Source of the DNA: a virus
Length of the DNA stretch: 64,000 nt
Virus record (IMG/VR): IMGVR_UViG_3300024054_000015
Location: 16,046 to 80,045 of that record
Strand: one strand, 5' to 3'
The position numbers were made by a program, and so were the translations under genes. Each line of letters starts with the position of its first letter. The stretch's first letter is position 1. The notes beneath the pieces were generated by a model. The model had not been told where the DNA came from, did no database searches, and saw only the letters and a list, made by a program, of their open reading frames with translations. Positions 15,969-56,907 of this stretch are shown here, one piece after another.

Positions 15969-16102
15969 TGGCGCGCAAAATGGCTACAAGTGGCAGCGCG
16001 CGCGCACATATATGTTGTGTGCGCGCGCCGCCCCTGCCGGTCATTCACCATACAGACTCATAGAAAGTTTGGATAACATGGAAATACGACTATTGGAAAT
16101 AT

Positions 16103-38774: not shown

Positions 38775-39359
38775 GTGGAGACACCCTGGGAGCAGACTAT
38801 GAACGGATTGGTGTACGATCTGGAGATTGTCAAGGGTATCCCTTTAGGACATAAAGAAGAGGGTGTGGAGTACTGTGACGGATGGACAGACTATGCTAAC
38901 ATGGGCATCAGTGTTCTCTGTGCCTACGACTTCGTGAGCAAGTCTTTTAGGGTCTTCTGTCAGGACAACCTTCAGGAGTTCTTTGAGTTAGCAGCCCAAA
39001 GGGATCCATTGATTGGGTTCAACTCTGTAGGATTCGATAACAACGTCCTCTCATGCTTTGGTACTCTTCCAGAGGGTAAGGACTACTACGATATCCTTCA
39101 GGAGATCTATCGCACGGTTGGCAAAAGATTCAAGGGTAGTGGTCTTGATGCTATCTGTACTCTGAATGGGTTGGGTAGCAAGTCTGGAAATGGTGCTCTA
39201 GCTCCTGTGCAATGGCAGAGAGGGCAAATTGGTAGTGTCATTGATTACTGCTTGAGGGATGTAAGGCTTACGAGGGATCTCTTCGTCCTCAGTCAGAAGG
39301 CTATCATCAAGACTCCTAAGGGAAACCTCTCGTTGAGGAAGGTTGATGATGCTGATTAA
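38775..39359 (+). CDS. DEDD/RNase H-like 3'-5' exonuclease
   Basis: VYDLEI, IGFNSVGFD, LDAIC, DYCLRDV; alternative ATG 38799. Confidence 0.8.
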   Translation: METPWEQTMNGLVYDLEIVKGIPLGHKEEGVEYCDGWTDYANMGISVLCAYDFVSKSFRVFCQDNLQEFFELAAQRDPLIGFNSVGFDNNVLSCFGTLPEGKDYYDILQEIYRTVGKRFKGSGLDAICTLNGLGSKSGNGALAPVQWQRGQIGSVIDYCLRDVRLTRDLFVLSQKAIIKTPKGNLSLRKVDDAD

Positions 39360-39921
39360 CCCTTTCACTGGTCAAGTCTTGAATGCTAATCCAGAGGGGC
39401 ATAACCAGTATTGGAACCCTAATGGACCTTCTGCAGACTTCTCTCTGCCTCTGAAGCCCTCTATCTCTCCAGGAAGTCTATCGAGGGGGTTGGCTAAGAG
39501 AAGGTCTAGGGAGGCTATTCGCCTTCTTAAAGTTGCCTCTAGAGCTCCTGGCACAAGTCTTGATAAGTTCATGTCTAAAATGACTGGAGTTGACGCTGAT
39601 AGCCGAGTGGCTGAGGAAGCTAAGGATCAGCTAGAGAGACTTAGGAGTAGTAGAAAGCCCTCAAAACACGCTCTGGTTGCTAAGAAGCTCAGGGACATCT
39701 ACGAAAACGAGGAATTCCTCATGGTTGATGAGGCAGATGCCCTAAAGAGACTCTCCGGCGCAAATCAGAGAGCAGCAGATGCCTATGCCGTGGCTAAGAA
39801 GATTAGATCAAGGAGAAACGCCAGTAGTGGTCAATTCGTGAAGAAGAGTGGTGATTTGATTCCAGTTCAACCCTTCAATCAACCTTTCTGGACTCCTCGT
39901 GAGTACCCTGAACCTGACTAG
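39349..39921 (+). CDS. Putative internal head protein, NPFTG leader family #1
   Basis: MLINPFTGQVLN-ANPEGHNQY; basic helical body. Confidence 0.65.
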   Translation: MLINPFTGQVLNANPEGHNQYWNPNGPSADFSLPLKPSISPGSLSRGLAKRRSREAIRLLKVASRAPGTSLDKFMSKMTGVDADSRVAEEAKDQLERLRSSRKPSKHALVAKKLRDIYENEEFLMVDEADALKRLSGANQRAADAYAVAKKIRSRRNASSGQFVKKSGDLIPVQPFNQPFWTPREYPEPD

Positions 39922-39933
39922 TGGAGACCTATC

Positions 39934-40167
39934 ATGACTGAAGGCTGGCAACAACGACTCATTGACGAAGCAGAGGACCTCGAGATCAGGATCAAGAAGC
40001 TCTCTGAGTTTGCTAACACCGAGGAGTTCAAGAGCCTTGACAGTACTCATCGTGATTTCGTGAGGATTCAGCAGTATCACATGGGGTGGTATCTCTGGGC
40101 TCTGAAGGCTCGAATCAAGAGACTTTCTGAGCCTGCTCCTCCGGTTATCATTCCGTTGAATAAATAA
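39934..40167 (+). CDS. Small coiled-coil phage protein (crAss001_48-like)
   Basis: WQQRLIDEAEDL..IKKL..F...QQYHM..Y..LKARI. Confidence 0.6.
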   Translation: MTEGWQQRLIDEAEDLEIRIKKLSEFANTEEFKSLDSTHRDFVRIQQYHMGWYLWALKARIKRLSEPAPPVIIPLNK

Positions 40168-40191
40168 TGTCTAGTGGTGGATGGGACAGAA

Positions 40192-40851
40192 ATGCCATCT
40201 GTGATTCTCAAGAAACGTGATCTTGATTCCTTGAATGATATGGAATTGAGATTCGTCAAGGCTTTGATCGCTGACGATCTTTGGAGACCTGTTCAGGCAG
40301 CTAGGACTGTTGGATATAAGAGCCCTTCATTAGCTGCTACGAGGTTGATGAAGAAGCCCGTAGTAGCAGCAGCCTTAGGAAGAGAACAACGTCGCAGATT
40401 AGAACGTCTTCAGTTGAAAGCTGATGAAGTTCTGCACATGCTCGCTACTGGACTCTTCTTCAATCCACTTTCACTCTTTAAGCCTTCTGCTGATGGAAAG
40501 TGGGTCGTAGAGGACTTGGACAAAGTCCCTGCGGAAATAGGACGTTGTGTAGAGGAAGTCAAGTGTCGTACTGTGGACAGTATGGACGACGATGGGAACG
40601 TGACTTCCACAACGTACTTTGAACTGAAGATGATGTCCAAGACGAAGCTCTTAGAGCTTGCGATGAAACACTGCGGAGTTGACGGCACGCAGAAGATAGA
40701 GCATACGGGCAATCTGGGTCTACAGATCGGCCTCAGCAATGGGATCAATGGGCTGCTGATGGCCATTGAGAACACACGCTCTTCCCAAGTGGTCGATGGT
40801 ACAGTGTTGGAGAAAGAGGTAACAGATGTTACTAATCAATCCGCTGACTAG
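40192..40851 (+). CDS. terS: Terminase small subunit
   Basis: RFVKALI..QAARTVGYKS..ATRLMKKP HTH; KTKLLELAMKH; position. Confidence 0.8.
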   Translation: MPSVILKKRDLDSLNDMELRFVKALIADDLWRPVQAARTVGYKSPSLAATRLMKKPVVAAALGREQRRRLERLQLKADEVLHMLATGLFFNPLSLFKPSADGKWVVEDLDKVPAEIGRCVEEVKCRTVDSMDDDGNVTSTTYFELKMMSKTKLLELAMKHCGVDGTQKIEHTGNLGLQIGLSNGINGLLMAIENTRSSQVVDGTVLEKEVTDVTNQSAD

Positions 40852-41299
40852 GCAAGTTCTAAACCACATGCAAGGAAGGCATGATCAGTCAGGACATGGA
40901 CAGGAGGCTTTGCCAGACAAGTTCTACAAGAAGAGAAGGGATTCTACTTCCAGTAGGTTGGCCAAGAGAATCTTTGAGGGACCATTTGACAGTTTTGAAG
41001 AGGCTGCTGCTCACTCGTACGTGTTGGATGACCTGGACACTAGGAAGTCTTCCCTGGATAAAGGCTTTCTGATGGGAGCTCATGGGAAAGCAATCCCTGT
41101 CACCAAAGGCTCTTATCTTCAGGAGGATATCACAGGAGGAAATGAGGGAGACATTCACGACTACAACAAGAGTGGAGATCGTATCCCTATAAGGCATAGG
41201 ATTGTCCCGGTAAGGAGTGTGGCAAAGCTCCGACCCAAAAGAGTGAACATGATGGCAGACGTGATAGCAGAACTTAGGCAGAGAAGGGGATTAGACTGA
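40826..41299 (+). CDS. Putative internal head protein, NPFTG leader family #2
   Basis: MLLINPLTRQVLN-HMQGRHDQSGHG. Confidence 0.6.
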   Translation: MLLINPLTRQVLNHMQGRHDQSGHGQEALPDKFYKKRRDSTSSRLAKRIFEGPFDSFEEAAAHSYVLDDLDTRKSSLDKGFLMGAHGKAIPVTKGSYLQEDITGGNEGDIHDYNKSGDRIPIRHRIVPVRSVAKLRPKRVNMMADVIAELRQRRGLD

Positions 41300-41688
41300 T
41301 GTCCAACGAGATACAGGTAACGATTCAGCTTAGTTGTGCTAAGGGTGAGTTCTATCAGCCTGCCCTTGGAACGCCTCAATCAGTAGACCAGAACGGTCTA
41401 GGTGGAGGCAATCCAGGGTTCATTAACGTAGGGGCCTCTGAGGAGGACGTTAGCTTGGGAGACCTTACGACTCCAGGCTATTGCTACATCAAGAACCTTG
41501 GCCCTTTGACTGGCACGGCTCAGCCTGTGATCACCTTTGGTCCTAAGAGTGGCGGAGCTATGGTCGGCTTCTGTAGTCTAAAGACTGGCGAGGAAGCGTG
41601 CTTTAGGCTCACGGACACAACTCCCACGCTGCGCATTGTCAGCGATATCGCGAATACAGGCGTGCAGATAGTCATCCTGGAGGATTAG
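41299..41688 (+). CDS. Hypothetical beta-rich (virion?) protein
   Basis: Tiled ORF. Confidence 0.55.
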   Translation: MSNEIQVTIQLSCAKGEFYQPALGTPQSVDQNGLGGGNPGFINVGASEEDVSLGDLTTPGYCYIKNLGPLTGTAQPVITFGPKSGGAMVGFCSLKTGEEACFRLTDTTPTLRIVSDIANTGVQIVILED

Positions 41689-41689
41689 C

Positions 41690-41896
41690 ATGGCTACGAT
41701 TCATCTAGCAGGTCCAATAGTAACTGTAGACAGCAGAGTCGTTCAGCGTTGTGCTGTCTGTGGACAGAAGCTAGTGGACTTGGACGCTTTCGAGCCAGGA
41801 AAGCCTGTAGTGGAAGAGGGCTGTCAGTTGAAGACAGTGCAGAACGTAGATATGTACCATAGCTCCGACCTGTGCGTGACCTTGGTGGAGAAATGA
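41690..41896 (+). CDS. Small Cys/His protein
   Basis: H..CAVCG..C. Confidence 0.5.
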   Translation: MATIHLAGPIVTVDSRVVQRCAVCGQKLVDLDAFEPGKPVVEEGCQLKTVQNVDMYHSSDLCVTLVEK

Positions 41897-42378
41897 CCAT
41901 GCTCATCAATCCGTTTACAGGTCAGGTACTCAACGTCAATCCACAGGGATACAATCAGTACACTGGAAAGGGTCCGGAGTCTAACAGGAAGAGACTTCAG
42001 CAGATCGCTGGAGATGATGTCCGTATTGAGTACAAGATCCCAGAGGCCTACGAGAAGAGCGTGAGGCTGTCTGGAGACTACTTTCCTCCAGAGGTAGACT
42101 GGGACACTGAAGAGGTAACGAAGCCAGCGACTATCTTTGTTTCTCCAGGCAGATACGAAGGTGCTATAGCTGCCCATGAGATAGGGCATCATAAGCTAGG
42201 TCACACGCAGGATGTGGAATACGAAGATGATGCAGAGAGCCGTGAAAGAGATGCCTGGCGATATGCTCTTAAGAACAGAAAGAGTATGGCAGTCTCTAAG
42301 AGGAAACTGTTCCGCCTTATGAGGACTGCTGAGGTTCTGGCTAAGAAGTCTAGAGGAACTTTCGGACCAGCTAAGTGA
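41893..42378 (+). CDS. Putative internal head protein, NPFTG leader family #3, with HExxH metallopeptidase motif
   Basis: MLINPFTGQVLN-VNPQGYNQY; AAHEIGHHKLGH...ERDAWRYA. Confidence 0.65.
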   Translation: MTMLINPFTGQVLNVNPQGYNQYTGKGPESNRKRLQQIAGDDVRIEYKIPEAYEKSVRLSGDYFPPEVDWDTEEVTKPATIFVSPGRYEGAIAAHEIGHHKLGHTQDVEYEDDAESRERDAWRYALKNRKSMAVSKRKLFRLMRTAEVLAKKSRGTFGPAK

Positions 42379-43976
42379 TCAACTCCGAAGCTGACCTACT
42401 CTCTGATCCCTTTAACTTTCTTGCTCTGTGTTGGCCAGACATCAAGCTGACCAAGCCGCAAGCCAAGATCGTACATAGCATTGTCCACAATCACACTACT
42501 GTCGTGCCTGCTGGCAACGATCAAGGCAAGGACTTTATTGCAGCCTTTATCTGCGTCTGGTTCTTCTGCTCTCGTAGCCCTTGCAAGATTGTGACCCATT
42601 CGGTAGATCAGCCTCAGCTTAAAGGCGTTCTCTGGGGCGAAATGAAGAGGTTTATTCAGACCTCGAGATATCCTCTGCCGCTGAACGTGCGTGAGGATAT
42701 GTTCATGCAGTTCGTGCGTCCTGATGGTACAGCCGATCCCTTGAGCTACCTCATTGGCCGTGTCACACGTAAGGGTGAGGGATTGCTGGGTCATCATATC
42801 GCTAACACAGAGAGCGATAGACTGCCCGATGGCTCTATGCTTCCTCGTACGCTGTTCGTAGCTGATGAAGCCAGCGGTATTGACGACGAGGCATGGGAGA
42901 AGGTGGACACCTGGAGTCATCGTAAGCTCGCTATCGGCAATCCCTATCCCACTACGAACTTCTTCTATAAGGCCACGAAGGCCGGAGATATCCCGCACCC
43001 CAGGCTCAAGGGACGTTTCCTTCAGAAGGTTATCCACATCGATTGCGATGATAGTCCGCACGTAGAGCGGGCTAAGTCGATGATGGACATTGGTCTAGAC
43101 CCTGATGACAAGGTCTTGATCCCAGGCATCCTCAGTTGGCAGGAATACGAGCGACGTCTCAAGGTCTGGGATGAGATGCGGCAGTGCATCGGCCTACATG
43201 GGAAGTTCTATGAAGGTCGTGAAGTCAAGCTATTTCCTCCCAACTGGCTAGACCGTGCTGAGGAAGTCGCTGAGAGGTTGCCGAAGGATCGCATAGGCAA
43301 AGCGATGGGAGTGGACGCTGCTGAAGGTGGCGATAACTCCGTGTGGTGCATAGTGGACGAGTTGGGCTTGATCTACATGGAGGCCCATAAGACAAATGAC
43401 ACAAATGATATTCCTGGACTTTCCATTGCCATCGGGAAGCGTTTCGGTGTTGCTCCTGAGCGTTGGGTATTCGATCGTGGGGGTGGCGGCAAGCAACATG
43501 CCGATCGGTTACGAGCAATGGGGTATGAGTGTGCTTCCATCGGTTTTGGTGAGGGTGTGGTAGATCCACAAGCCTGGAAGCGTACTGCGGACTATATCCC
43601 GAAGAAAGAAGTGCGGGAGGCTACAGAAGAGAGGTACATCTACAAGAACCGTAGAGCCGAGATGTACGGCACGCTTAGGCTTGCATTAGATCCGACTGTG
43701 TTGCAAAATGGCTTCGGGCTACCAAAAGAGTTGATTCGGGTGAAACGGTTGGACGGTGGACCTTCCCTCAGAGATCAGTTAGAGATACTACCGCTGCTCT
43801 ACGATCCTGAGGGAAGGCTCTACTTGCCGCCTAAGCAGAAGAAGAATGCGGACGACAAAACAGTCACGATCAAAGATATGCTGGGCGACTATAGCCCAGA
43901 CGAGGCAGACGCGCTTGTGCTCGCCTGCTATGGAATGACCTTTAAGAGTCCTCCAGTCATCAGGAGTATGATATGA
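42375..43976 (+). CDS. terL: Terminase large subunit
   Basis: PAGNDQGKDF Walker A-like, FVADEASG Walker B, IGNP, GVDAAEGGDNSV nuclease, SPDEADAL. Confidence 0.9.
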   Translation: MINSEADLLSDPFNFLALCWPDIKLTKPQAKIVHSIVHNHTTVVPAGNDQGKDFIAAFICVWFFCSRSPCKIVTHSVDQPQLKGVLWGEMKRFIQTSRYPLPLNVREDMFMQFVRPDGTADPLSYLIGRVTRKGEGLLGHHIANTESDRLPDGSMLPRTLFVADEASGIDDEAWEKVDTWSHRKLAIGNPYPTTNFFYKATKAGDIPHPRLKGRFLQKVIHIDCDDSPHVERAKSMMDIGLDPDDKVLIPGILSWQEYERRLKVWDEMRQCIGLHGKFYEGREVKLFPPNWLDRAEEVAERLPKDRIGKAMGVDAAEGGDNSVWCIVDELGLIYMEAHKTNDTNDIPGLSIAIGKRFGVAPERWVFDRGGGGKQHADRLRAMGYECASIGFGEGVVDPQAWKRTADYIPKKEVREATEERYIYKNRRAEMYGTLRLALDPTVLQNGFGLPKELIRVKRLDGGPSLRDQLEILPLLYDPEGRLYLPPKQKKNADDKTVTIKDMLGDYSPDEADALVLACYGMTFKSPPVIRSMI

Positions 43977-44575
43977 GCAAAGAGCCAATCGTGAATCCGT
44001 TTACTGGAGAAGTGGTGGCGAACTTCAGTCTTAGGGGAATCGGAGAGGTATTTGACCTGGGAAGGAAGGCCCAGAAGCTCGGTCAGATGGCAGGAACTAA
44101 GTCAGGTGCGGTTGAGTCCAGGTGGGCTAAACTTCGCGGTAAAGACGCTGGTCTCTCTAGGAGAGCTTCCAGAAGGATCTACCGAGCCGGTGCTGGAACC
44201 CAGAAGGCCATAGAAGCCGCGAAGAAGCACTCCTTCAAGACGGGAGTGGCGACTGGTGCGGTTGCTGGTGCTGCCTCTACAGGAGCCGCCATGAAGTACT
44301 CCAAGTCCAAGAAGAAGCAGATGGCTCACAACATCCTCGGCATGGCTCTGGGAAAGGTCAGGAACCCTCTGCAAGATGCCCTCACCAAACCCTTCCGCAA
44401 GAAGAAGACCACTGTCGGTGGCGTGCTGAAGGGCGGACTCACAGGCGTTAGGAACGAGAGCCATCTTGGCCTCATTACGCCTTCCAAGGCTAGGAAGCGT
44501 AAGCTCATCTCTTCTGCAGAGCAAGATGCCAAGAAGAGGGGATTGGTCCTCAAGCCCGTCGGGAGCTTCAGATGA
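43973..44575 (+). CDS. Putative internal head protein, NPFTG leader family #4 (basic, Gly/Ala-rich)
   Basis: IVNPFTGEVVAN; internal MAHN and GVRN sites. Confidence 0.6.
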   Translation: MSKEPIVNPFTGEVVANFSLRGIGEVFDLGRKAQKLGQMAGTKSGAVESRWAKLRGKDAGLSRRASRRIYRAGAGTQKAIEAAKKHSFKTGVATGAVAGAASTGAAMKYSKSKKKQMAHNILGMALGKVRNPLQDALTKPFRKKKTTVGGVLKGGLTGVRNESHLGLITPSKARKRKLISSAEQDAKKRGLVLKPVGSFR

Positions 44576-44760
44576 CTCTTGGACAAATCGCTTACGAAGC
44601 CTACTGCAAGTTCAGTGACAACAAGTCTCTGGTCTCTGGGCAAGAGCTACCAAGCTGGGGAAACCTCAACAGTCGCATTAAGGCTGCTTGGGAAGCATGT
44701 GCTAAAGAGGTTGGCAGGTATGTGATGACAGAATTGGCAGACCTTGCCAAAGGAGACTAG
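44572..44760 (+). CDS. Small hypothetical protein
   Basis: LGQIAYEAY...AAWEA. Confidence 0.55.
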   Translation: MTLGQIAYEAYCKFSDNKSLVSGQELPSWGNLNSRIKAAWEACAKEVGRYVMTELADLAKGD

Positions 44761-44985
44761 GTGGACAAGCCTAAGACCATTGCTGACCTGGGCGACAACA
44801 CCGAACGTGATAAGCCCATTATCGGCAAGTCCATGATAGACCATGGACCTAAGTCGGTAAGTCGTCGCATTGAGGAAGCCCAGAAGCGGCATGAGGAAGA
44901 GCAGAAGCTGCTAGAGGCTGGCGGCTATGACTATGGCGGCACAGAGGCTTTCGAACGAGCCATGAGGAACGTGGGGAGATGGTGA
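44761..44985 (+). CDS. Small hypothetical protein
   Basis: Tiled ORF with GGAG RBS. Confidence 0.5.
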   Translation: MDKPKTIADLGDNTERDKPIIGKSMIDHGPKSVSRRIEEAQKRHEEEQKLLEAGGYDYGGTEAFERAMRNVGRW

Positions 44986-45515
44986 TGATTCTAGTCAATC
45001 CATTCACTGGCCAAGTGCTTATCAACGCCAACCCTAGAGGCGACAATCAGTACATCAATCCCGATGGGCCTAGCCAGAAGCCTGTTAGAACAGCGAAGCA
45101 TCTCGTTAAACGTCTGACTGCTGGCGTGCTAGGACCTGTCTCGGCAGATCGTGTTGCTGGATTTGCACTGCCTGACGACAGTCTAGTGGGAGGCCTGGGC
45201 AAGATGCATGAGGATCTGGTGCGAGAGGATCCTGAGAAGTTCGGAATGGACAGAGGAGACATGCCAAGAGATCCAGTGGCCAAGGCTATCTCCAAGGGAG
45301 CCATACGCTTTCGTGGAGTTTCCCTAGAGCTCGACTCTAGCAGACACACTCCAGGGAAGATTGGCATGATGATCTCCAGCGGTAAGTTGCCCTCTACTAC
45401 CGAAGGTCATGTCTACATTGACTCTGCAGACTTCAATGGTGCAGCCCATGTGGATGAGTTGCTGATGGCCAAGTCTTGGAGACATCTAGCTTACGGGAAG
45501 AAAAGACTAAGATAA
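44985..45515 (+). CDS. Putative internal head protein, NPFTG leader family #5
   Basis: MILVNPFTGQVLIN-ANPRGDNQY. Confidence 0.65.
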   Translation: MILVNPFTGQVLINANPRGDNQYINPDGPSQKPVRTAKHLVKRLTAGVLGPVSADRVAGFALPDDSLVGGLGKMHEDLVREDPEKFGMDRGDMPRDPVAKAISKGAIRFRGVSLELDSSRHTPGKIGMMISSGKLPSTTEGHVYIDSADFNGAAHVDELLMAKSWRHLAYGKKRLR

Positions 45516-48354: not shown

Positions 48355-49347
48355 ATGAGCATCCTTCGCGTAGACCCCACTCGCACTACTAGACTTCGTC
48401 GTCAGTTCACTAGTGCGATTAACGTGCGGTTCACCATGTTCAAGAAGGACCTATTGCATCTGTTTCAGCATGGAATGCTGGGCATGGTCCGCCCTACCCT
48501 TAACGCCGAGTGGACCTTTCCCACAGAGCATAAGCTGCAAGAGCTCAAGCGATGGCTTCAGTTTAAGACTGGTCAGCTATTCCTAAAGAACTATATGGAG
48601 GACTCTGCACAGTCTTGGGTTGGGGAGTACATACAGCAGTCGTACCAGCGAGGCTTGAAGAGATCTTGGGGCGACTGGCGTAGGCCGACTCAGGTTATGA
48701 CCATGCCTGGAGACGTAGGAGCTATCTTCCAGAAGGGTGGCGAAGCAGAGTTTATGCGGCAGTCTTTTGGTGGACCTATTCCTGTAGAGAAGGTAAGACT
48801 ACTCTCAACACGCACCTACAGTGACTTGGCTAACGTCACAGAGCAGATGTCCGCACAGATCTCTCGAACTCTGCTGGACGGTGCTGTTAGTGGACTCAAT
48901 CCCCGCAAGGTCGCCAAGCAACTGTCTAAGCTCGTAGACATGAGTAAGGGTCGGGCCTACATGGTCGCCCAGACAGAGACGATCAGGAGCTTTAACGAGG
49001 GAGCCTTAGATGGATTGGAGAACCTGGGAGCTAAGGCTGTAGGCGTGATGGTGGAATGGTCCGTGTCAGGGCTGGGCTACACCGAAAAGGGCTATCCTTC
49101 ACCCTGCAAGAAGTGTGCCCCTTTGGCGGGACTGGTGCTGACCGTTGATGAGGCTAGAGGGATGCTGCCTCGGCATCCGCGTTGTCGGTGCAGTTTCATA
49201 CCCGCGAACGTAGGAGAAAAGACCGCCAAGCAAGTCCGTGATGCTGAACGCATACGAGCGGCCATTGCCCGTTCTGCTAGTGGTGACACCCGTTGGATTG
49301 GAGCAAGTAAGACTATCTCTTCAGAAAGACCAGTGGAGGCCTCATGA
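48355..49347 (+). CDS. MuF/SPP1 gp7-like head morphogenesis protein
   Basis: DPTRTT, RAYMVAQTETIR, CKKC..LPRHPRCRC. Confidence 0.85.
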   Translation: MSILRVDPTRTTRLRRQFTSAINVRFTMFKKDLLHLFQHGMLGMVRPTLNAEWTFPTEHKLQELKRWLQFKTGQLFLKNYMEDSAQSWVGEYIQQSYQRGLKRSWGDWRRPTQVMTMPGDVGAIFQKGGEAEFMRQSFGGPIPVEKVRLLSTRTYSDLANVTEQMSAQISRTLLDGAVSGLNPRKVAKQLSKLVDMSKGRAYMVAQTETIRSFNEGALDGLENLGAKAVGVMVEWSVSGLGYTEKGYPSPCKKCAPLAGLVLTVDEARGMLPRHPRCRCSFIPANVGEKTAKQVRDAERIRAAIARSASGDTRWIGASKTISSERPVEAS

Positions 49348-49604
49348 GTGGAGTCAATGGATTTACACCCACGGAGCGTAGAATGCTAGAGCTCCTTAAG
49401 GACGGCAAGCCTCATAGAAGGGAGGAGTTGCACTCGTGCTTGCAGGATGAGCTTGCAGACTTGTCTGCGATACAGCCGCATATCTCAAACATCAGGAAAC
49501 GTATCAGGAACCTTGGTGAGGAGATCGTGTGCGAGTTCTATCAGAGATCGTTGCACTACAGACACGTAAGGCTCCTTAGTTCTCCGTATGATGGTAGAGT
49601 TTAA
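49344..49604 (+). CDS. Winged-helix (OmpR/PhoB-type) DNA-binding protein
   Basis: FTPTERRMLELL..REEL..HISNIRKRI. Confidence 0.7.
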   Translation: MSGVNGFTPTERRMLELLKDGKPHRREELHSCLQDELADLSAIQPHISNIRKRIRNLGEEIVCEFYQRSLHYRHVRLLSSPYDGRV

Positions 49605-49633
49605 GGCTTAGGCCAAAGGCTCTCATCCATTGA

Positions 49634-49661
49634 TTGCTCAAGAACCCTAAGTTGGTATATT
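49634..49661 (+). promoter_or_regulatory. Sigma70-like promoter (extended -10)
   Basis: TTGCTC-16-TATATT preceded by TGG; ATG 49668 lies 7 nt downstream. Confidence 0.55.
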
Positions 49662-49667
49662 TGCATT

Positions 49668-52600
49668 ATGAACATTCCACGAGAAATGTCTCCAAAGTCG
49701 TACAGGCTGGTTTCGTCAATTCTCCACAATGAATGGAGTGATGAAGCCCGGAAGAAGTCTGCCGAGTCTAGGAAGCGCAAAGCCCAACAGCGTGGATCTT
49801 GGTTAGGGTCTACAGCGAAGGCTGTGGGCAAGGCTGGGCTGATCGCCGGTGGAGTAGTCGCTGGAGGACTCCTTGGGGGAAGGATAGCTCCTAGAGTCTT
49901 CGGTAAGGGAAGACTAGCTAGGGTTGGAGAGAACCTCACCGGAAAGGTCGTCTACACCGTTCCGCCTAAGAACTTGGAAGGATTCGAGAAGTGGTCTATA
50001 GGGGCTGCAATTCCAGTCGGTAGGAAGCGGAGTCTAGGCTCGGTACTGGAAGAACAGGGCAAAAGAGCTGGACTCAGAGGAAGAGTTGCCAGAAGACTCA
50101 GTGCCATAGAGAAGTGGTTCGGGATCCCTGAACGACATTACGGTGTTGGCACTGACAAGGGTCACGTGACTCACTTCTCTCCGCATGGAGTAAAGAAGCA
50201 CACCAAAGGTGAGTTCGGGGCCTACTGGTCTGAAAGAATGTCAGATCGCGAGCCTCGTAACATCTGGGTTGTGGACGAGGGTCTGGTAAGCGGAAAGAAG
50301 GGAAGTGTAAGGAAGGCAGAGCTCGCTGCGGTTAAGTCCAGGCTTGCAGCTAGGAGAAACTGGAGAGGCAGAGAACTTAGATGCCTTGGCAAGAAGAACT
50401 GCGAGACCTTCGCTAGAGAGATCTCCAGCGGCAGAAAGCAGTACAAGAGCCGATTGGCTCTTACAGGTGCAGCCGGAATCGCAGGTGGTGGAACCACTGG
50501 TGGAGCGGTCACTGGAGCCGCTACCCTACTCGGCGGGAAGAAAAAGAAGGACTCCAAGAGAAGGATGGTCAGAAACGTCCTACAAGTGATCAACGGTGGT
50601 CCAGGCTCAGGCTTCCGTGGGCACAAGGGAAGACCGGGTCAAAGGGGTGGGTCAGCTCCGGAAGGTGGCGGAATGCTGGGATCGACTACTTATAGACCAG
50701 CTTCGCTTCCATTGTCAGAGTCTCCTCAGGCTCGAGCCAAGCGAATTAAGCTGATCTACACTAAGGCCTCTAGACTGGCCGATGTGTACGGGGATCATGC
50801 GAACAAGCTCGAGCAGAAGAGGCGCAGCAAGCTCCTTCCGCTGAACAGGCGAGAACTGATCGATCTGTTGGAAGCCCACAAGAACGCTGCTGACAACTTC
50901 CGGGCGAGTGCCGAGCAGTCTACCTTGGTCAAGAGATTCACTCCCGAGCAGCAACTCCAACGCTTGGAGCAGGCGAGTCGTCACGAGGAGATGGCAGCTA
51001 AATACCTCAAGAGGCTAAACCGTGAGATCCCAGGTAAGGACTTCGTTAAGGCTGTGGGCAAGACATTCCTCGGAGAACTGGTTGGGGATCTTCCTTCAGA
51101 GATTGGTCGCATGGGTGCGGACATCACTAGGGAATCGATCCGAGGCGGCTTCAAGTCTTTGGTCGGTAAGAGCCCTTCGCTGGGCAAGTTTGGAGAGGGT
51201 GTCTTTAAGGGTGGAAAGGCCAAGGCCGAGGAGTACAAGAATTCAATCCTAGAAGGCGGAAGGATTAGGGACAAGTCCAAAATGCTGAGAGCCGCCATGG
51301 AAGAGGTCAAGAGGCTTCAAGCTATCGACAAGAACATCAAGAAGCAACTCCATGCTCTTGGTGGTCGGGTCAGTCGAGGCAAGCCTAAGTCAGCTTCCGA
51401 GAAGCCGAAGCAATTCAGTGCAGACGCTATTCGGAAAGCTCTAATCGAGGCCGCTAATCAGAAGCTGGCTGATGCCGAAGAGAGGGTTCTGGCCTCGAAT
51501 GAGTTCACAGCCCTGGTGTCTAACCTTGAAGGTCAGGTGCGTCGGGAAACGCTGCACGACCGCGAGTATCTAGTGGCACCCCTAACGATGATCGTTCCAG
51601 GCGTCTTGGCAGGAAGCAAAGGCCCACTTCTATACCCAGAAGAGGAAGTTGCTAAGAACCCGAGCGCCTGGAACGGTATGCCCATCGTGGTCAATCACCC
51701 GATGAAAGACGGGATGCCGGTAGAGGCTCGCAACCCTGCCATCCTCAATCAGTACCAGATCGGTACTGTCTTCAACACCAAGTACAACGGCAAGCTCGTA
51801 GCTGAGGGCTGGTTCGACGTGGACCGCACTCGCAAGACCAACATCGGCATCTACGAGCAGTTGGTCAACAACCGGCCGATTGAGTTGAGTACGGGTCTGT
51901 ACACGGACAACGAGTCCTCTGAGGGAACCTGGAACGGTCGCCCTTATAGCTACGTGGCTCGCAACTATCGCCCGGATCATCTGGCGATCTTGCTGGGCTC
52001 CAAAGGTGCTTGCAGCATTAAGGACGGCTGTGGAGTGCTGATCAACGAAACTGATCCCGTAACCAACATCGTCCAGAAGACTGGTGGAGGCTACAAGCTC
52101 GTCAGCCATAAGGGCAAGAACCTCGGCACGGCCAAGACTAAGGCTGGTATCCTCAAGCGTGAGCGTCAGGTGGAGTACTTCAAGCACGTGAGAAACGAAG
52201 TGCGAGAAGTGATAGACCTCATCAACAACGGTCCCTATCGTGCTGCCGCAGGAAGCTTGTGGAAGGCTGTCAAGTTAGGTGGTGGTCAGGCCATTAAGGA
52301 CGTGCTGGGAGTTGCCAAGAAGACATCTAAGACTAGAAGGTTTATCAAGAAGTTCCCGAAGACTTCTACAGCCGTAGCTGCCGGTGGAATCGGTTATGCT
52401 GCTGGAAAGCGTAAGAGGAGCCAGACGAACAATGCCCTCAAGGCTGGGATCGTAAACATACCCTTCATCAGCAAGAACCGTGCCAAGGCTCGGCGTCAAG
52501 TCGCTGGCTTTGCTGGAGGGGCGGCTGCTGGAGCCTATGGCACAGTCAAGGGTGCTGCTATAGGAACCGCTGTAGGTGGACCAGTTGGAGGGATTATAGG

Positions 52601-53153
52601 AGGGGCTGCTGGTGGTGCGACTGGAGCCTGGGGCGCTCGCAAGATTGCCAAGAGACTTGGCGGTAGCAGTGCTGAGTCCGGTGCAGACCTGGGAGGCCTA
52701 GCAGGTACGTTCGCTCCCATAGGTTCTGGGGCTGCTAGAGCCGCTGGAGCAGCCGTTAAAGCTTCCAGAACCAAAAGGATTATCGGCGGTGCTGGAAGAT
52801 TGGGTGCAGATTATGCAGCTTATGAGGGAACTACTAGAGGTCTGGATAAGCTGGCTTCAAAGTTCAGCAGACGTAGGAAACGCTCTGTGGTAAGTAATGC
52901 CTGGACTGAGGAAGCCCGCCGCAAGTCGCTAGAGACCCGTAGGCGTCATGCTGTAGGTGGAACTGATATTGGATTGGGGATAGCTGGCGGCATGGCTGTG
53001 GGAAAGATTGGGTCGAAACTGGTAGAGCCTGAAATCGACGCAGCGGTGGACAGAATCCGACAGGCTATCATCAGGTCTTTTAAGGATGTGAAGAGGAATC
53101 CGGGTCTTGGTCGTAGAGTGATCAGGCTTCTCAAGTCAATCAGGAGAGTCTAA
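49668..53153 (+). CDS. Head polyprotein: LRAT-like domain + DUF2213 prohead protease + multiple basic/Gly-zipper modules
   Basis: Protease ~51510-52045 (WNGMPIVVNHP, IELSTGLY, PDHLAIL, GACS); HYG...NCETFA LRAT motif; repeated hydrophobic-X-N junctions. Confidence 0.8.
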   Translation: MNIPREMSPKSYRLVSSILHNEWSDEARKKSAESRKRKAQQRGSWLGSTAKAVGKAGLIAGGVVAGGLLGGRIAPRVFGKGRLARVGENLTGKVVYTVPPKNLEGFEKWSIGAAIPVGRKRSLGSVLEEQGKRAGLRGRVARRLSAIEKWFGIPERHYGVGTDKGHVTHFSPHGVKKHTKGEFGAYWSERMSDREPRNIWVVDEGLVSGKKGSVRKAELAAVKSRLAARRNWRGRELRCLGKKNCETFAREISSGRKQYKSRLALTGAAGIAGGGTTGGAVTGAATLLGGKKKKDSKRRMVRNVLQVINGGPGSGFRGHKGRPGQRGGSAPEGGGMLGSTTYRPASLPLSESPQARAKRIKLIYTKASRLADVYGDHANKLEQKRRSKLLPLNRRELIDLLEAHKNAADNFRASAEQSTLVKRFTPEQQLQRLEQASRHEEMAAKYLKRLNREIPGKDFVKAVGKTFLGELVGDLPSEIGRMGADITRESIRGGFKSLVGKSPSLGKFGEGVFKGGKAKAEEYKNSILEGGRIRDKSKMLRAAMEEVKRLQAIDKNIKKQLHALGGRVSRGKPKSASEKPKQFSADAIRKALIEAANQKLADAEERVLASNEFTALVSNLEGQVRRETLHDREYLVAPLTMIVPGVLAGSKGPLLYPEEEVAKNPSAWNGMPIVVNHPMKDGMPVEARNPAILNQYQIGTVFNTKYNGKLVAEGWFDVDRTRKTNIGIYEQLVNNRPIELSTGLYTDNESSEGTWNGRPYSYVARNYRPDHLAILLGSKGACSIKDGCGVLINETDPVTNIVQKTGGGYKLVSHKGKNLGTAKTKAGILKRERQVEYFKHVRNEVREVIDLINNGPYRAAAGSLWKAVKLGGGQAIKDVLGVAKKTSKTRRFIKKFPKTSTAVAAGGIGYAAGKRKRSQTNNALKAGIVNIPFISKNRAKARRQVAGFAGGAAAGAYGTVKGAAIGTAVGGPVGGIIGGAAGGATGAWGARKIAKRLGGSSAESGADLGGLAGTFAPIGSGAARAAGAAVKASRTKRIIGGAGRLGADYAAYEGTTRGLDKLASKFSRRRKRSVVSNAWTEEARRKSLETRRRHAVGGTDIGLGIAGGMAVGKIGSKLVEPEIDAAVDRIRQAIIRSFKDVKRNPGLGRRVIRLLKSIRRV

Positions 53154-53504
53154 GTGACTACTGTAACCATCAACAACGCTCAGCAGCGAGAGATCGAGTC
53201 TCGTATGCTGATGAAATCTCTTACGATCAACATTCCTGGATATGCCCCTAAGAAGCGTGGACTCGTTCGTCGTACGTTAGGGGCTGGATTAGGAGCAGTC
53301 GGCGGTGGCATCAAAGGAATGATGGGTGGAGCGGTCAAGGGTGGTACAGTTGGAGGACTTGGTGGTTCGATGGTTGGAGCGGCTCCTATGGGAGCCACTG
53401 CTGGAGCTCTTGGTGGTGGTGCCATTGGCGGAATTCGTGGAGCCATGCGGGGGGCTGCTTACGGAGCTCGTAAGTTCTCGAAACCTAAGGTCATTTATCA
53501 ATAG
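53154..53504 (+). CDS. Glycine-zipper protein with scaffold-type leader
   Basis: TVTINNAQQREIE leader; GxxxG repeats. Confidence 0.65.
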   Translation: MTTVTINNAQQREIESRMLMKSLTINIPGYAPKKRGLVRRTLGAGLGAVGGGIKGMMGGAVKGGTVGGLGGSMVGAAPMGATAGALGGGAIGGIRGAMRGAAYGARKFSKPKVIYQ

Positions 53505-53517
53505 CGGGAGAAGCACG

Positions 53518-54306
53518 ATGCCCACAACGGTAACGATCAACAGATCGGAACAGCAGCGAGTTGAGAACCAACTTGTTGCTAATGGACTTGCTAAGGACAT
53601 CGGTCATGGATGGTCCTTCAGCAGGGACTTGATAAAGTCTGGAATAAAGAAAAGACCACGGATGGTCGATCCAAACCTGGGGTTCTCTGTGGGGTTTGAA
53701 GGTCACCGTCTGAAGGAAGCTATCAAAAGGCATCCAAAGACGACCGCAGGCGTTGCTGGAGTAGGAGCTGGTCTGGTTGGTGCTGGCTATCTTGCAGGGA
53801 AGAGGAAAGGCAAAAAGAAAACCACCAACAACGAGGTTTTGATCAACCACTCCGAGCAGCAACGAGTTGAGCGGCAGATGTTGATCAATCAACTGTCACA
53901 GAACTACCAGCCAGTGGAGATGATCGACAATGCCTCCATAGGAAAGATGGTGAAGGGTGGTAAGGCAATGGCCCGGCGAGGATTTAAGAGGTTGTCCTCT
54001 GGAGTCCAGTCATTCAAGACTGGAAGTGAGGTTGGCACCAAGTATGGCGCGAAGGCTAGAAAAGGTATAGGAAAGTCAAGCACTCCTGCCAGCTACAAAG
54101 CTGGGGTGATCTTTGGATCCACCGCTGGAAGGGCTGGAAAGGCTGCTGCAATCCAAGCCAAGCGAGCCGGGCTTAGAGCGAAGAAATTTGCTAAGAGCCC
54201 TGCTGGAAAAATGACTGGAGTAGGTGCGGCGGCTGCTGGTGGAGCCGCTTTTGGAAGTACGGTTAGTAGCCGCGCTCGTCGCAAGAAGGCTAGAAACGAT
54301 TATTGA
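53518..54306 (+). CDS. Two-module basic protein with duplicated scaffold-type leader
   Basis: TVTINRSEQQRVENQLVAN and VLINHSEQQRVERQMLIN. Confidence 0.7.
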   Translation: MPTTVTINRSEQQRVENQLVANGLAKDIGHGWSFSRDLIKSGIKKRPRMVDPNLGFSVGFEGHRLKEAIKRHPKTTAGVAGVGAGLVGAGYLAGKRKGKKKTTNNEVLINHSEQQRVERQMLINQLSQNYQPVEMIDNASIGKMVKGGKAMARRGFKRLSSGVQSFKTGSEVGTKYGAKARKGIGKSSTPASYKAGVIFGSTAGRAGKAAAIQAKRAGLRAKKFAKSPAGKMTGVGAAAAGGAAFGSTVSSRARRKKARNDY

Positions 54307-54368: not shown

Positions 54369-55082
54369 ATGGCCAGAATGACTTTGAACCAAGCAGAGAG
54401 GCGAGAGTTGATCTCGTCAATGGTCACCAACTGCGCTGGTTGGGACAAAGAGGACTTGGACATTCTTCACAACATGAGCGACGACAAGCTCTGGGTCCAT
54501 GCCCGAGGCTGTGCGCAGTTGATCGCCAATGAGGAAGAAGACGCCGGTGACCTTAGCGACGAAATCGAACCCTCGGCTGCGACAGAGTTGGAAAGCTCTG
54601 CCACAGAAGGGCTTGAGGATGAAGAGGTTGATGGCAATCAGGGTGAGCAAGGTCCACCCGCTGTGGAGCCTGACGCCGAGACCAAGGATCAACCCAAGAA
54701 GTGTTGGGATGAGGAAGGAAACGAGACCTCTTGCCCCGAAGAAACGGCTGATGGTGAAAACGTGACTGAAAACCAATACCTGAACTTTCTGCCGCCTCGT
54801 ATCCGCAGCGTGGTCGTCAACGCCATCAAGTTTGAGCAGGCCCAGAAAGCTCAGTTGGTTGGTTCCATCACGGCCAACAGTCGCAACCGCTTCAGTTCTC
54901 AGTACCTGATGCGCATGAGCTTGGACGAACTCCAGGCTCTGGCGGATCTGGCCTCGCCTCGTCGTTCGAATCAGCTTTATGTTGGAGCCGCTGGCGGTCC
55001 GGTTCTCAACCAGTCGGACGTTGACCGCGAAGACATTCTGACTGTTCCGACTCTCGAGTTCACCATGAGCTCGAAGGGTTGA
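54369..55082 (+). CDS. Putative capsid scaffold protein
   Basis: Acidic, helical; directly upstream of decoration and capsid genes; AAGGAG RBS. Confidence 0.6.
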   Translation: MARMTLNQAERRELISSMVTNCAGWDKEDLDILHNMSDDKLWVHARGCAQLIANEEEDAGDLSDEIEPSAATELESSATEGLEDEEVDGNQGEQGPPAVEPDAETKDQPKKCWDEEGNETSCPEETADGENVTENQYLNFLPPRIRSVVVNAIKFEQAQKAQLVGSITANSRNRFSSQYLMRMSLDELQALADLASPRRSNQLYVGAAGGPVLNQSDVDREDILTVPTLEFTMSSKG

Positions 55083-55113: not shown

Positions 55114-55608
55114 ATGGGTGCTGTTGACAGTCACAACACGATTGTGTTGACTCCGGCTCCGGCTGGACGATTTCTGGAGGGTCTCCTGGACGTAACCACG
55201 TCCTTGAAGCCTGGACACTTGATGGCCATCAAGGCGGCTACCGAGCCGGTCGGTGGTCGTCACACCTGGACGAAGTATGAAGGCACTGCTGGTCATCGCA
55301 CACTGATTGCGATTCTGCTGGAAAACGAGATGGTGGGACTCACCTGCGAAGACGCCATCAGCGACGGTCAGCGTATTCGCCTGTACTGTCCGATTCCTGG
55401 AGATGAGTTGCTGGTTCGCGTTAGTGCCGCTGGTACGGGTACTGGCGATGCCTTGGCCATTGGAGATAAGGTGATTGCCTCTAACGATGGAACGTTTAAG
55501 GCCAACACTGGCTCTCCAGAGTCTGAGCCGTTCATTGTCATGGAGACAGTGGCAGACGTGACTGCGTCTCCTGGTGATCTGGTTCACGTGATGTTCACAG
55601 GATTCTAA
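55114..55608 (+). CDS. Head decoration/cement protein
   Basis: LKPGHL..; IGDKVIASNDGT; position before MCP. Confidence 0.65.
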   Translation: MGAVDSHNTIVLTPAPAGRFLEGLLDVTTSLKPGHLMAIKAATEPVGGRHTWTKYEGTAGHRTLIAILLENEMVGLTCEDAISDGQRIRLYCPIPGDELLVRVSAAGTGTGDALAIGDKVIASNDGTFKANTGSPESEPFIVMETVADVTASPGDLVHVMFTGF

Positions 55609-55653: not shown

Positions 55654-56907
55654 ATGTTTGTTGATTCCTTTGTTCAGAATGAGGGCTGGTCCGGTGATTC
55701 GCTGGGCAGCGCCCTCGAACTCGTAAGGGACCGTGGGACCATTTGGGATCCAGGTCTCATGCGACCGTACCTGGACAGTAAGGGCCGAGCCTGTGTGACA
55801 GTGAACACAGGTCGCAAGGCCCCTCGCAGGGACGAGCGCGGTGGTGGATTCATTACCAACGAGCATGGGATGCCCAAGATGTTTCCCATTCTCGAGAAGC
55901 AACTGATCTCCGAGCGTGCCGCTCGAGGACTGGCAGTTCCAACGGTCAACGCAGGCAACCTGCTCACGAAGGAAGCCTGGGTGATGTTGGACAACGCGGT
56001 CCTGGAAGCTGCACGGAATCGCCTGCGTGCTTGGGCAGATCTTCGCGCTGCCAACACGTATGGTGGTTTCGACGGGATGGCCAATCCCATCCTGGAGTTC
56101 GAACGAGTGACGGACGTGGGTGAGGCCGTAGAAGACATGGACGGCATGACCGAGGCCCGCTCGTTTGCTCCGAAGTTTGACTTGCAAGGAATGCCCTTGC
56201 CGATCACGCACAGTGACTTCTTCCTGTCGGCTCGCTTCTTGGCCGTCAGCAAGAACAAGTCACAGCCCATGGACACCATGCGTGCGGAGATGGCTGGACG
56301 CCGTATTGGTGAGCGTATTGAGCAAGTCACTATCGGTTCAGCAACAGGGATGCTCTATGGTGAGGCCGCTGGCAGTCGCTACACTTATGCGAACGACAGT
56401 CAGGTCTACGGCTATATGACCCATCCGGATCGGTTGACGTCCAGTGGACTCACTACTCCTACTGGATCCAACGGTACGACCATTTTGGGTGATTGGCTGT
56501 CTATTCGTGAAACGATGTACACGAACAAGTTCTTTGGCCCGTACATCGTGTACACGTCCACGGATTGGGATCAGTATCTGGACAACCTGTTCAGCACGAC
56601 TGAGCCGAGTGCGGGCACGTTGCGCAAGCGATTGCTGGAGATCTCTGATATCCAAGACATTCGTCGCTTGGATTATCTCACGAGTGCCAGCTATCCCTTC
56701 ACAACGATCTGGGTCCAAATGACTCCAGAAACAGCACGGGCTGTCAACGGTATGGAGATCACCACTGTTCAGTGGCCCTCCATGGGTGGCATGCGCTTGA
56801 ACTTCAAGGTCATGTGCATCCAGGTGCCGCAGATTCGCTCTCGCTTCACTGGTCCCAACACGACCACGGCGAAAGCTGGTGTCTGCATTGGTACTCACAC
56901 TTCGTAG
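55654..56907 (+). CDS. Major capsid protein (HK97 fold, linocin/encapsulin-like subgroup)
   Basis: VN-AGNLLTKEAWVMLDNAV, PLPITHSDF, FKVMCIQVPQIR; strong AAGGAGG RBS; downstream terminator. Confidence 0.85.
   Translation: MFVDSFVQNEGWSGDSLGSALELVRDRGTIWDPGLMRPYLDSKGRACVTVNTGRKAPRRDERGGGFITNEHGMPKMFPILEKQLISERAARGLAVPTVNAGNLLTKEAWVMLDNAVLEAARNRLRAWADLRAANTYGGFDGMANPILEFERVTDVGEAVEDMDGMTEARSFAPKFDLQGMPLPITHSDFFLSARFLAVSKNKSQPMDTMRAEMAGRRIGERIEQVTIGSATGMLYGEAAGSRYTYANDSQVYGYMTHPDRLTSSGLTTPTGSNGTTILGDWLSIRETMYTNKFFGPYIVYTSTDWDQYLDNLFSTTEPSAGTLRKRLLEISDIQDIRRLDYLTSASYPFTTIWVQMTPETARAVNGMEITTVQWPSMGGMRLNFKVMCIQVPQIRSRFTGPNTTTAKAGVCIGTHTS

Follow-up and report, generated by a model that had tools for sequence, protein, structure and literature searches.

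A DUF2213-type prohead protease embedded in a likely self-processing head polyprotein with asparagine-ending junctions in an uncultured lake phage

In herpesvirus pre-assemblin (UL26/UL80a), phage lambda C/Nu3 and P2 gpO, the maturation protease lies within a longer assembly protein and frees itself at flanking sites, and the head proteases of T4, phiKZ and SPN3US cut after Glu, at the motifs L/I-x-E and S/A/G-x-E. In systems of the SPN3US/T4/phiKZ type, a single protease recognizes and cuts a short motif in numerous head and ejection proteins, removing N-terminal leaders and long propeptides, cutting some of the latter repeatedly and also cleaving itself (PMC10052503). Polyvalent phage proteins, in turn, string disparate domains together around an embedded peptidase that is predicted to release them; the assemblin-like peptidase is one of the four peptidase superfamilies concerned, is linked to virion processing and was described as "always at the C termini" (Iyer 2017, PMC5512222). 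Among tailed coliphages, the mature capsid protein (gp36) of TLS was shown by Edman sequencing to begin with A-S-D-M-G-I-W (PMC11447400). Here, we analyzed a window of 64,000 nt (positions 16,046 to 80,045 of IMG/VR record IMGVR_UViG_3300024054_000015), i.e., the whole stretch of DNA studied, which is the late region of an uncultured lake phage, and focused on its open reading frame (ORF) at 49668-53153 on the (+) strand. This ORF is open over 1161 codons, ends at the stop codon 53151-53153 and encodes a strongly basic protein of 1161 aa (~125 kDa; isoelectric point [pI], 10.6). We consider it, with a probability of about 0.6, to be a head-internal polyprotein whose embedded protease cuts after asparagine and thereby frees both itself and the modules around it.

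The embedded protease and the asparagine-ending junctions

An earlier note on this sequence had described a ~180-aa protease of the DUF2213 type within the 1161-aa protein, and we located it as a 174-aa DUF2213/assemblin-fold prohead serine protease domain at residues 620-793 (51525..52046, (+) strand), which was recognized through Pfam, PHROG, Foldseek and homology. Specifically, the Pfam profile DUF2213 (PF09979; cut-off, 22 bits) spans residues 657-775 and scores 24.4 bits with the whole protein and 30.6 bits with the excised domain, phrog_760 covers residues 623-802 (E = 7e-26) and phrog_530, annotated as "head maturation protease", matches at E = 2.6e-6. A phmmer search of the whole polyprotein against PDB sequences gave no match. 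By structure, the best PDB match in Foldseek was the T4 prohead protease gp21 (5jbl; probability, 1.0; template modelling score, 0.52 normalised to the target), followed by the assemblins of Kaposi's sarcoma-associated herpesvirus (KSHV), cytomegalovirus (CMV), pseudorabies virus (PRV), Epstein-Barr virus (EBV) and herpes simplex virus 1 (HSV-1), and the best matches in BFVD were DUF2213 and prohead proteases, down to E = 3.6e-15. The AlphaFold model, built with 38 homologs, has a predicted local distance difference test (pLDDT) score of >90 across residues 620-795, and BLAST and phmmer alignments to 178 relatives start four residues before N619 and end at N793-795.

Four residues of the domain (H677, S741, D770 and H771) are invariant among 38 sequences, and H677, S741 and H771 (or D770) are candidate catalytic residues by analogy, their order, His...Ser...His, being that of the assemblins. 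Both ends of the domain coincide with asparagines. At the N-terminal boundary, N619 is invariant in the same 38 sequences, while the C-terminus is the invariant block C-S-I-x-D-G-C-G-V-L-I-N (family form, C-S-x-x-D-G-C-G-x-x-x-N), whose terminal Asn, equivalent to N793, is found in 154 of 165 relatives. Relatives that carry the protease at their N-terminus keep a propeptide of 6-15 aa that likewise ends in Asn, typically M-E-T-L-x-x-N. There is no in-frame Met near residue 620, and the protease can therefore be obtained only from the long precursor.

The asparagines at the protease boundaries belong to a wider pattern. All eleven junction tetrapeptides listed in the earlier note are present in the translation, namely, ILHN (18-21), MVRN (300-303), QVIN (306-309), LASN (608-611), LVSN (616-619), VLIN (790-793), PVTN (797-800), HVRN (840-843), LINN (851-854), QTNN (919-922) and VVSN (1074-1077), and we found a further one, GIVN (927-930), that was absent from that list. 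They share the form aliphatic-x-x-Asn, with P1 fixed as Asn and P1' variable (E, V, G, L, I, A or N), and the motif is often doubled, with a spacer of 6-11 residues between the copies. These spacers are acidic or neutral and comprise VLQVIN (residues 304-309; 50577..50594, (+)) between the tandem sites N303 and N309, EFTALVSN (612-619; 51501..51524, (+)), which ends at the N-terminal boundary of the protease, ETDPVTN (794-800; 52047..52067, (+)), the acidic stretch of residues 844-854 (52197..52229, (+); pI, 4.1), which ends with LINN, and ALKAGIVN (922-930), which separates the modules called J and L below.

The polyprotein contains 44 Asn residues, 30 of them outside the protease domain (counted as residues 620-792). 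When 17 sequences were aligned, the asparagines at the junctions proved to be conserved in 60-100% of them: N619, N793 and N1077 are each kept in 17/17, N21 in 14/14, N309 in 16/16, N843 in 13/17, N611 in 12/17, N800 in 7/10, N303 in 11/16, N854 in 9/14 and N921 in 9/15. The other asparagines outside the protease, in contrast, are mostly conserved in 6-36% (1-5 sequences), the exceptions being N244, which lies in the catalytic NCE box of an enzyme-like module, N818 and N410, and the difference between the two groups is significant (Mann-Whitney p = 5.5e-5). The segments of the AlphaFold model with a pLDDT of <50 (17-23, 269-350, 606-620, 795-800, 840-955 and 1012-1079) are the junction regions, and large insertions and deletions among homologs coincide with junctions as well (after residue 293, at 794-818, around 855-937 and before 1077). 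For example, four homologs (P0005, P0007, P0010 and P0011) carry inserts of 103-287 aa at the N303/N309 spacer, two (P0009 and P0015) carry inserts of 40-46 aa at the spacer 794-800, and residues 795-818 are deleted in seven. The same asparagine punctuation is found in three independent lineages (P0047, P0153 and P0080). Judged by conservation, disorder, homology boundaries and module shuffling together, the pattern of junction asparagines is more than chance.

Next, we compared the architectures of the family. A scan of 1.84 billion cluster representatives with the protease domain returned 6921 relatives at E <= 1e-3, 178 of which were examined. These range from 227 to 1978 aa in length, with 44 to 1792 aa downstream of the protease, which is N-terminal in 147 and embedded in 26. 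A C-terminal scaffold-like domain of ~220 aa, ending with Y-x-G-A-A-x-P-x-x-N...D-D-I-L-P-L-P-T-I/M-N-W, is present in 78 of the 178 relatives, and the insert that separates it from the protease measures at least 100 aa in 32 and at least 300 aa in 13 of these 78, reaching 871 aa. The comparison thus revealed what the earlier note had predicted, a constant protease amid a variable set of modules, which move yet stay flanked by Asn, and it shows that extra modules have been loaded beside the protease time and again in this family. Seven long relatives were searched for Pfam domains in their cargo, and none was found.

The phage of the window departs from the canonical architecture of an N-terminal protease and a scaffold in one chain: its protease lies at residues 620-793, and its scaffold is a separate gene. 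The latter (54369..55082, (+) strand) encodes an acidic, scaffold-like protein of 237 aa (pI, 4.2) with the leader M-A-R-M-T-L-N...M-V-T-N, and it gave no match in Pfam or PHROGs. In phmmer searches, this protein aligned over its full length with the C-terminal halves of canonical relatives (E = 1e-20 to 5e-28; e.g., residues 202-419 of P0175 and 196-413 of P0041), and it retains the family tail in the form Y-V-G-A-A-G-G-P-V-L-N...D-I-L-T-V-P-T-L. Because of this full-length homology, the canonical protein can be read as a fusion of protease and scaffold like that of herpesvirus pre-assemblin. The lineage studied here has split that fusion, with 54369-55082 as the scaffold half and the protease half embedded in cargo.

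Asparagine-ending motifs also occur on other head proteins of the window. Five leader-bearing cargo genes (39343, 40826, about 41896, 43973 and 44979; 39343..45515, (+) strand) have, according to their translations, leaders of the I-N-P-F-T-G-Q-V-L-N type that end with V-L-(I)-N, and the five proteins that share this leader are mutually unrelated. A second type, T-V-T-I-N...E-Q-Q-R...x-x-N, is carried by three proteins, i.e., the scaffold-like gene and, again from the translations, two basic glycine-zipper genes at 53154-53504 and 53518-54306 (53154..54306, (+) strand; pI, 11.6 and 11.2). The leaders of both families end with V/L/T-x-Asn. In the major capsid protein (55654-56907, (+) strand; DUF6260 by Pfam), L-A-V-P-T-V-N99 followed by A-G-N stands directly before the DUF6260 core, position 1 of the Pfam profile aligning to residue 99, and the IMG/VR relative L001, in which the system is conserved, has V-P-T-I-N followed by T-G-N at the equivalent place of its capsid protein; a maturation site of the capsid protein is predicted at N99.

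Three further observations concern these leader-bearing genes. The ORF listed as 326 aa at 53326-54306 probably begins at 53518 (M-P-T-T-V-T-I-N), and the gene 53518-54306 contains an internal second copy of the leader, E-V-L-I-N-H-S-E-Q-Q-R-V-E-R-Q-M-L-I-N, and therefore looks like a two-module mini-polyprotein. The 160-aa leader-bearing cargo protein at 41896-42378 has a zincin-like motif, H-E-I-G-H-H, and similar small HExxH modules are present in two leader-bearing genes of L001 as well as in the polyproteins of P0008, P0153 and P0036. When the protein at 41896-42378 was compared with the HExxH module of P0008, the sign of homology was marginal (23% identity; E = 1e-3 against a very small database) and was not used as evidence.

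The modules of the polyprotein and the surrounding genes

The earlier note had counted at least six unrelated modules around the protease. This is a fair description, since the chain has six segments besides the protease; three of these (855-921, 931-1077 and 1078-1161), however, are not clearly folded domains because they are basic, Gly/Ala-rich and modelled with low confidence. The modules other than the protease have a pI of 10-12. The chain opens with an N-terminal leader that ends with ILHN (residues 1-21; 49668..49730, (+) strand), in which N21 is kept in 14/14 homologs and residues 17-23 have a pLDDT of <50. Leaders of homologs read T-x-R-L-I-R-A-L-x-x-N and resemble the scaffold-type leader E-R-R-E-L-I-S-S-M-V-T-N.

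Module B (residues 22-303; 49731..50576, (+)) consists of a WSDEAR basic helix, a Gly-rich hydrophobic stretch and an LRAT-like core, and ends with MVRN; the predicted fragment has 30.4 kDa and a pI of 11.2. On sequence and modelling grounds, its core (about residues 80-270) resembles LRAT, a permuted NlpC/P60 fold, and may be a Cys hydrolase, with phospholipid or peptidoglycan as candidate substrates. Pfam LRAT scored 19.6 bits (cut-off, 24.3; E = 1.2e-3), i.e., below threshold, while H157, which lies upstream, and N244-C245-E246 are invariant in 11 sequences and follow the LRAT order of H-box and NC-box. For structural comparison, the module was modelled from nt 49890-50498. In VIA-align, five of the six top rows came from the LRAT/permuted NlpC-P60 superfamily, the rank-1 row being a chain of the Euglena respiratory supercomplex, with Z-scores of 8.2 for PLAAT4 (root-mean-square deviation, 2.6 over 94 aa), 7.3 for YiiX, 6.5 for PPPDE, 6.2 for the cysteine peptidase 3kw0 and 5.1 for TseH; a Z-score of ~8 is within the usual background of best hits. 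The top Foldseek rows were H-REV107, HRASLS3 and AdPLA at E = 0.4-0.6, and Atlas gave a lead of 0.86 to LRAT clusters.

Module D (residues 310-611; 50595..51500, (+)) begins with a GGPGSG..GGS linker, continues as a long all-helical domain and ends with LASN. AlphaFold places helices across residues 353-610, with a pLDDT of 84-96 across about 350-450, and the predicted fragment has 33.0 kDa and a pI of 10.3. In relatives, GGPGSG is always preceded by x-x-N. The module found no match in Pfam, PHROGs or Atlas.

Downstream of the protease, module H (residues 801-843; 52068..52196, (+)) is a 43-aa domain of three strands plus a helix that ends with HVRN and has the core motif G-G-Y-K-L-V-S-H-K-G-K-N-L-G ... 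Q-V-E-Y-F-K-H. It recurs at non-syntenic positions in five homologs (P0161, P0019, P0023, P0114 and P0072), nearly always flanked by Asn. Proteins of 886-1271 aa from other phages contain it as an embedded domain, and a stand-alone form (...G-K-N-L-G...K-K-R-L-K-Q-V-E-Y-F-K-H-V) is widespread, e.g., as an ORF of 63-94 aa in three viral contigs (L008, L009 and L011; IMG/VR, 50-131 kb). Modules J (855-921) and L (931-1077), which together span 52230..52898 (+) and end with VVSN, are very basic (pI, 11.6 and 11.8), Gly/Ala-rich and glycine-zipper-like; their pLDDT is low, and module L is 44% Gly+Ala. Module M (residues 1078-1161; 52899..53150, (+)) closes the chain with a second basic helix, WTEEAR, and a basic C-terminal tail, P-G-L-G-R-R-V-I-R-L-L-K-S-I-R-R-V, that is conserved in 17 close homologs. 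None of modules H, J, L and M matched Pfam or PHROGs.

As the earlier note had observed, the first and last modules open with the same motif, EWSDEARKKSAESRKRK after N21 and AWTEEARRKSLETRRRH after N1077. Across 48 instances of the WSDEAR motif, an Asn stands at position -2 or -1 in 47. The L001 gene at 3-1273 has an I-N-P-F-T leader and then, directly, N followed by A-W-T-E-A-A-R-K-A-S; hence, the helix generally marks the new N-terminus that follows a junction and is not confined to the polyprotein. One possibility is that it serves retention on DNA.

The polyprotein is encoded in a head-gene operon with the order TerL, portal, MuF, 86-aa gene, polyprotein, two small basic genes, scaffold, decoration and capsid protein. 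Its position between portal/MuF and the capsid gene is the same in L001 and in coliphage TLS, and the single strong terminator-like site of the region lies 3' of the capsid gene. The large terminase is at 42375-43976, the portal (872 aa) at 45526-48144, the MuF-like protein at 48355-49347 and the head-decoration gene at 55114-55608. The small 86-aa ORF between MuF and the polyprotein (49344-49604) has a counterpart in L001 (2158-2535) and a weak similarity to the Trans_reg_C winged helix (E = 3e-3), which is unusual within a head-gene block. The portal has a 233-aa C-terminal extension (residues about 640-872; 47443-48144) that is extremely acidic (pI, 4.1) and contains repeats of the D-P-x-T-G type, and the basic polyprotein and basic cargo could dock on it electrostatically.

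Since the earlier note had named an assembly fusion as a possible explanation, we examined the integrity of the ORF and found it to be genuine. Contigs from four lake-water runs tile 49000-54000 with zero joints and zero indels, and seven lake-water metagenome runs (2018 and 2025) contain 98-100% of the sampled words of the ORF. A fusion artefact is also contradicted by the fact that an identical product, starting at Met7, is recorded from four contigs and that collinear homologs of 1133-1549 aa are encoded on independent contigs, which reach 80 kb in length; a 1357-aa relative, in an unchanged gene order, is found on two IMG/VR contigs, each from a different metagenome. Translation may start at Met1 (ATG 49668) or at Met7 (ATG 49686), the choice of one gene caller, and no Shine-Dalgarno-like sequence is visible upstream of either ATG (49640-49690 inspected). 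The sequencing runs listed as containing the stretch include no RNA run. At 51221-51242, two of the four lake runs show three linked single-nucleotide polymorphisms (C>T, C>T and T>G), which indicate that strains of the phage coexist.

Processing, loading and alternative explanations

Taken together, these features make a self-processing polyprotein the likely reading of the ORF. According to this model, the precursor would be built into the procapsid by means of its scaffold-like N-terminal leader, its conserved basic C-terminal tail or both. The protease would then cut after P1 Asn, with an aliphatic residue or Thr at P3/P4, excising itself and separating the modules into fragments of about 30, 33, 19, 5, 7, 14 and 9 kDa. 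The same enzyme would trim the Asn-ending leaders of at least nine other head proteins, process the separately encoded scaffold and remove about 99 residues from the N-terminus of the capsid protein. Spacers and leaders, as short acidic or neutral pieces, would exit the head, and the basic fragments would stay with the DNA. More speculatively, ejection would deliver the basic fragments to the host cell, whose envelope would then be attacked by the LRAT-like enzyme and by the glycine-zipper peptides.

The earlier note had further proposed that cargo enters the head by fusion to the protease, as a third loading route besides the two types of leader. While the self-processing part of that proposal stands as likely, the distinct route is not established, because the polyprotein has a leader of its own that resembles the scaffold-type leader, as well as a conserved C-terminal tail. 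Either of them could address the whole chain, protease included.

Several points weigh against processing as we describe it. Cleavage after Asn is deduced from patterns in the sequence, and we found no Asn-specific prohead protease in the open-access literature. N854, N921 and N930 are moderately conserved or lie in gappy parts of the alignment, the Asn beside the WSDEAR helix could be a structural helix cap, and the doubled motifs could be beta-hairpin recognition elements instead of two cuts. Three of the modules are of low complexity and low model confidence, the LRAT assignment of module B is based on sub-threshold sequence scores and middling structural Z-scores, and ejection into the host is conjecture.

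Some of these points lead to other explanations. An unlikely one, though it survives better than the rest, is that the modules are processed but act as a sacrificial core like T4 gp22 or the SPN3US propeptides, helping to build the prohead before they are chopped up and expelled, so that at most a remnant of the protease would stay or be delivered. Module D is long, helical and scaffold-like, the cut sites are many and closely spaced, several modules are of low complexity, and propeptides of SPN3US are indeed cleaved into several pieces that are then removed from the head (PMC10052503). However, it is not obvious what a scaffold would do with an LRAT-like domain whose His and Cys are invariant, module H is also an independent phage gene, and fragments with a pI of 10-12 suit retention on DNA, whereas the dedicated scaffold at 54369-55082 is acidic.

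It is less probable still that the chain remains largely uncut, as a multidomain head protein with a tethered protease that cuts at most at its own boundaries, so that the Asn motifs would be linkers, hairpins, helix caps or recombination joints. This explanation gains from the Asn that precedes the WSDEAR helix in 47/48 instances, which could belong to the helix motif, from the likeness of the doubled motifs to hairpins (e.g., L-I-N-P-F-T-G-Q-V-L-N) and from the N4 virion RNA polymerase, which is packaged unprocessed despite a peptidase domain (PMC5512222). Yet the motif is found again at the end of N-terminal leaders that unrelated proteins share and before the core of the capsid protein, P1' varies while P1 is fixed, and the junctions all lie in disordered linkers.

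We regard as very unlikely that each Asn is cleaved autocatalytically through a succinimide, as in an asparagine peptide lyase, and not by a serine protease. Such lyases use Asn, which is strictly the residue at P1 here, and viral capsid maturation by Asn lyases is established (MEROPS N1, N2 and others; nodavirus and tetravirus coat proteins, with inteins as further examples). The known lyases, however, need a folded catalytic environment, whereas the sites in the window are short, disordered (pLDDT <50) and set in unrelated contexts. In addition, the chain includes a conserved protease of the assemblin fold whose His/Ser set is intact, and TLS, which has a related enzyme, has an Asp at the equivalent experimental site, a residue that cannot cyclise in this way. 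Finally, an assembly or gene-calling error that joined separate genes, which the metagenomic source and the unusual length of the ORF might suggest, is virtually excluded by the joint-free tiling from four runs, the presence of the stretch in seven, the identical product on four contigs and the collinear homologs of 1133-1549 aa on independent contigs, including those from two IMG/VR metagenomes.

Returning to the polyprotein that frees itself and its modules, we would give even odds to a broader generalization, namely, that this branch of DUF2213 (the 6921 cluster representatives at E <= 1e-3) consists of P1-Asn endopeptidases, that an aliphatic-x-x-Asn code reads out the mature virion proteome and that the enzyme studied here is one bead among basic, membrane-active and LRAT-like ejection proteins. 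If this is true, P1 Asn is a new substrate specificity for assemblin-fold maturation proteases, related to the experimental Asp site of T1-like phages, and it provides a sequence rule that predicts mature head and packaged proteins across a very large and mostly uncultured group of phages, making leaders, scaffold, capsid protein and multi-module cargo precursors readable from sequence alone. It would also mean a form of head-cargo organisation in which a cargo precursor contains the protease as one of its modules and the scaffold has a gene of its own.

Comparison with known systems

Polyvalent phage proteins in which assemblin-like peptidases free other domains are already known (Iyer 2017, PMC5512222), and the window protein resembles them in that a protease, an LRAT-like domain, a helical domain and a small beta-alpha domain occur in one chain. 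What is new relative to them is the central protease, the split scaffold, the explicit Asn code and the LRAT-like passenger. Specifically, the peptidase of the window protein is central, with 368 residues after it, and conserved junction motifs can be read explicitly, unlike in the proteins described by Iyer et al.; the latter are rich in enzymes that modify nucleic acids and proteins, whereas the window protein carries, besides one LRAT-like enzyme, cargo that is mostly basic and membrane-like. With regard to that enzyme, module B has the order of His and N-C-E box found in LRAT, H-REV107 (PLAAT) and permuted NlpC-P60 proteins, including TseH of the type VI secretion system (T6SS), and picornavirus 2A H-NC proteins (Aichivirus 2A) are among its best fold matches.

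The proteases T4 gp21, phiKZ gp175 and SPN3US gp245 share the fold of the window domain (top Foldseek match, 5jbl). They are, however, separate small proteins with only a C-terminal propeptide, and their cargo is encoded in separate genes; moreover, capsid-targeting cleavage of the T4 type follows Glu (L/I-x-E), whereas all conserved junctions in the window end with Asn. The herpesvirus, lambda and P2 precursors differ in other respects, as they carry scaffold only, at the C-terminus, are cut between Ala and Ser, and have neither enzyme- or membrane-type passengers nor an N-terminal extension.

Coliphage TLS shares with the window the gene order portal, MuF-like protein, protease, decoration and capsid protein, and its "capsid maturation protease" gp33 belongs to the same Pfam family, DUF2213 (E = 4e-23), as the polyprotein domain (30.6 bits). 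The link to TLS rests on this shared family because a direct BLAST comparison of the window protease domain with gp33 is not significant (E = 0.19). In TLS, as in 147 of the 178 sampled relatives, the protease is N-terminal and the scaffold follows in the chain, whereas the window protein has a central protease with cargo on both sides. The A-S-D-M-G-I-W start of the mature TLS capsid protein is preceded by K-N-D in the sequence record, which places the cut after Asp, whereas every predicted P1 in the window protein is Asn. Since a DUF2213 member is thus associated with a cut after Asp, an isostere of Asn, an Asn-directed S1 pocket is plausible, though not proven. Among cultured phages, a 417-aa protein of Pseudomonas phage Torfinnsbu (PQ464596) has an N-terminal ...Q-V-N, a protease end that reads G-V-G-L-L-V-N and then M-V-V-N and M-V-T-N, and a 428-aa protein of Salmonella phage KFS-SE2 (MK112901) has the same motifs.

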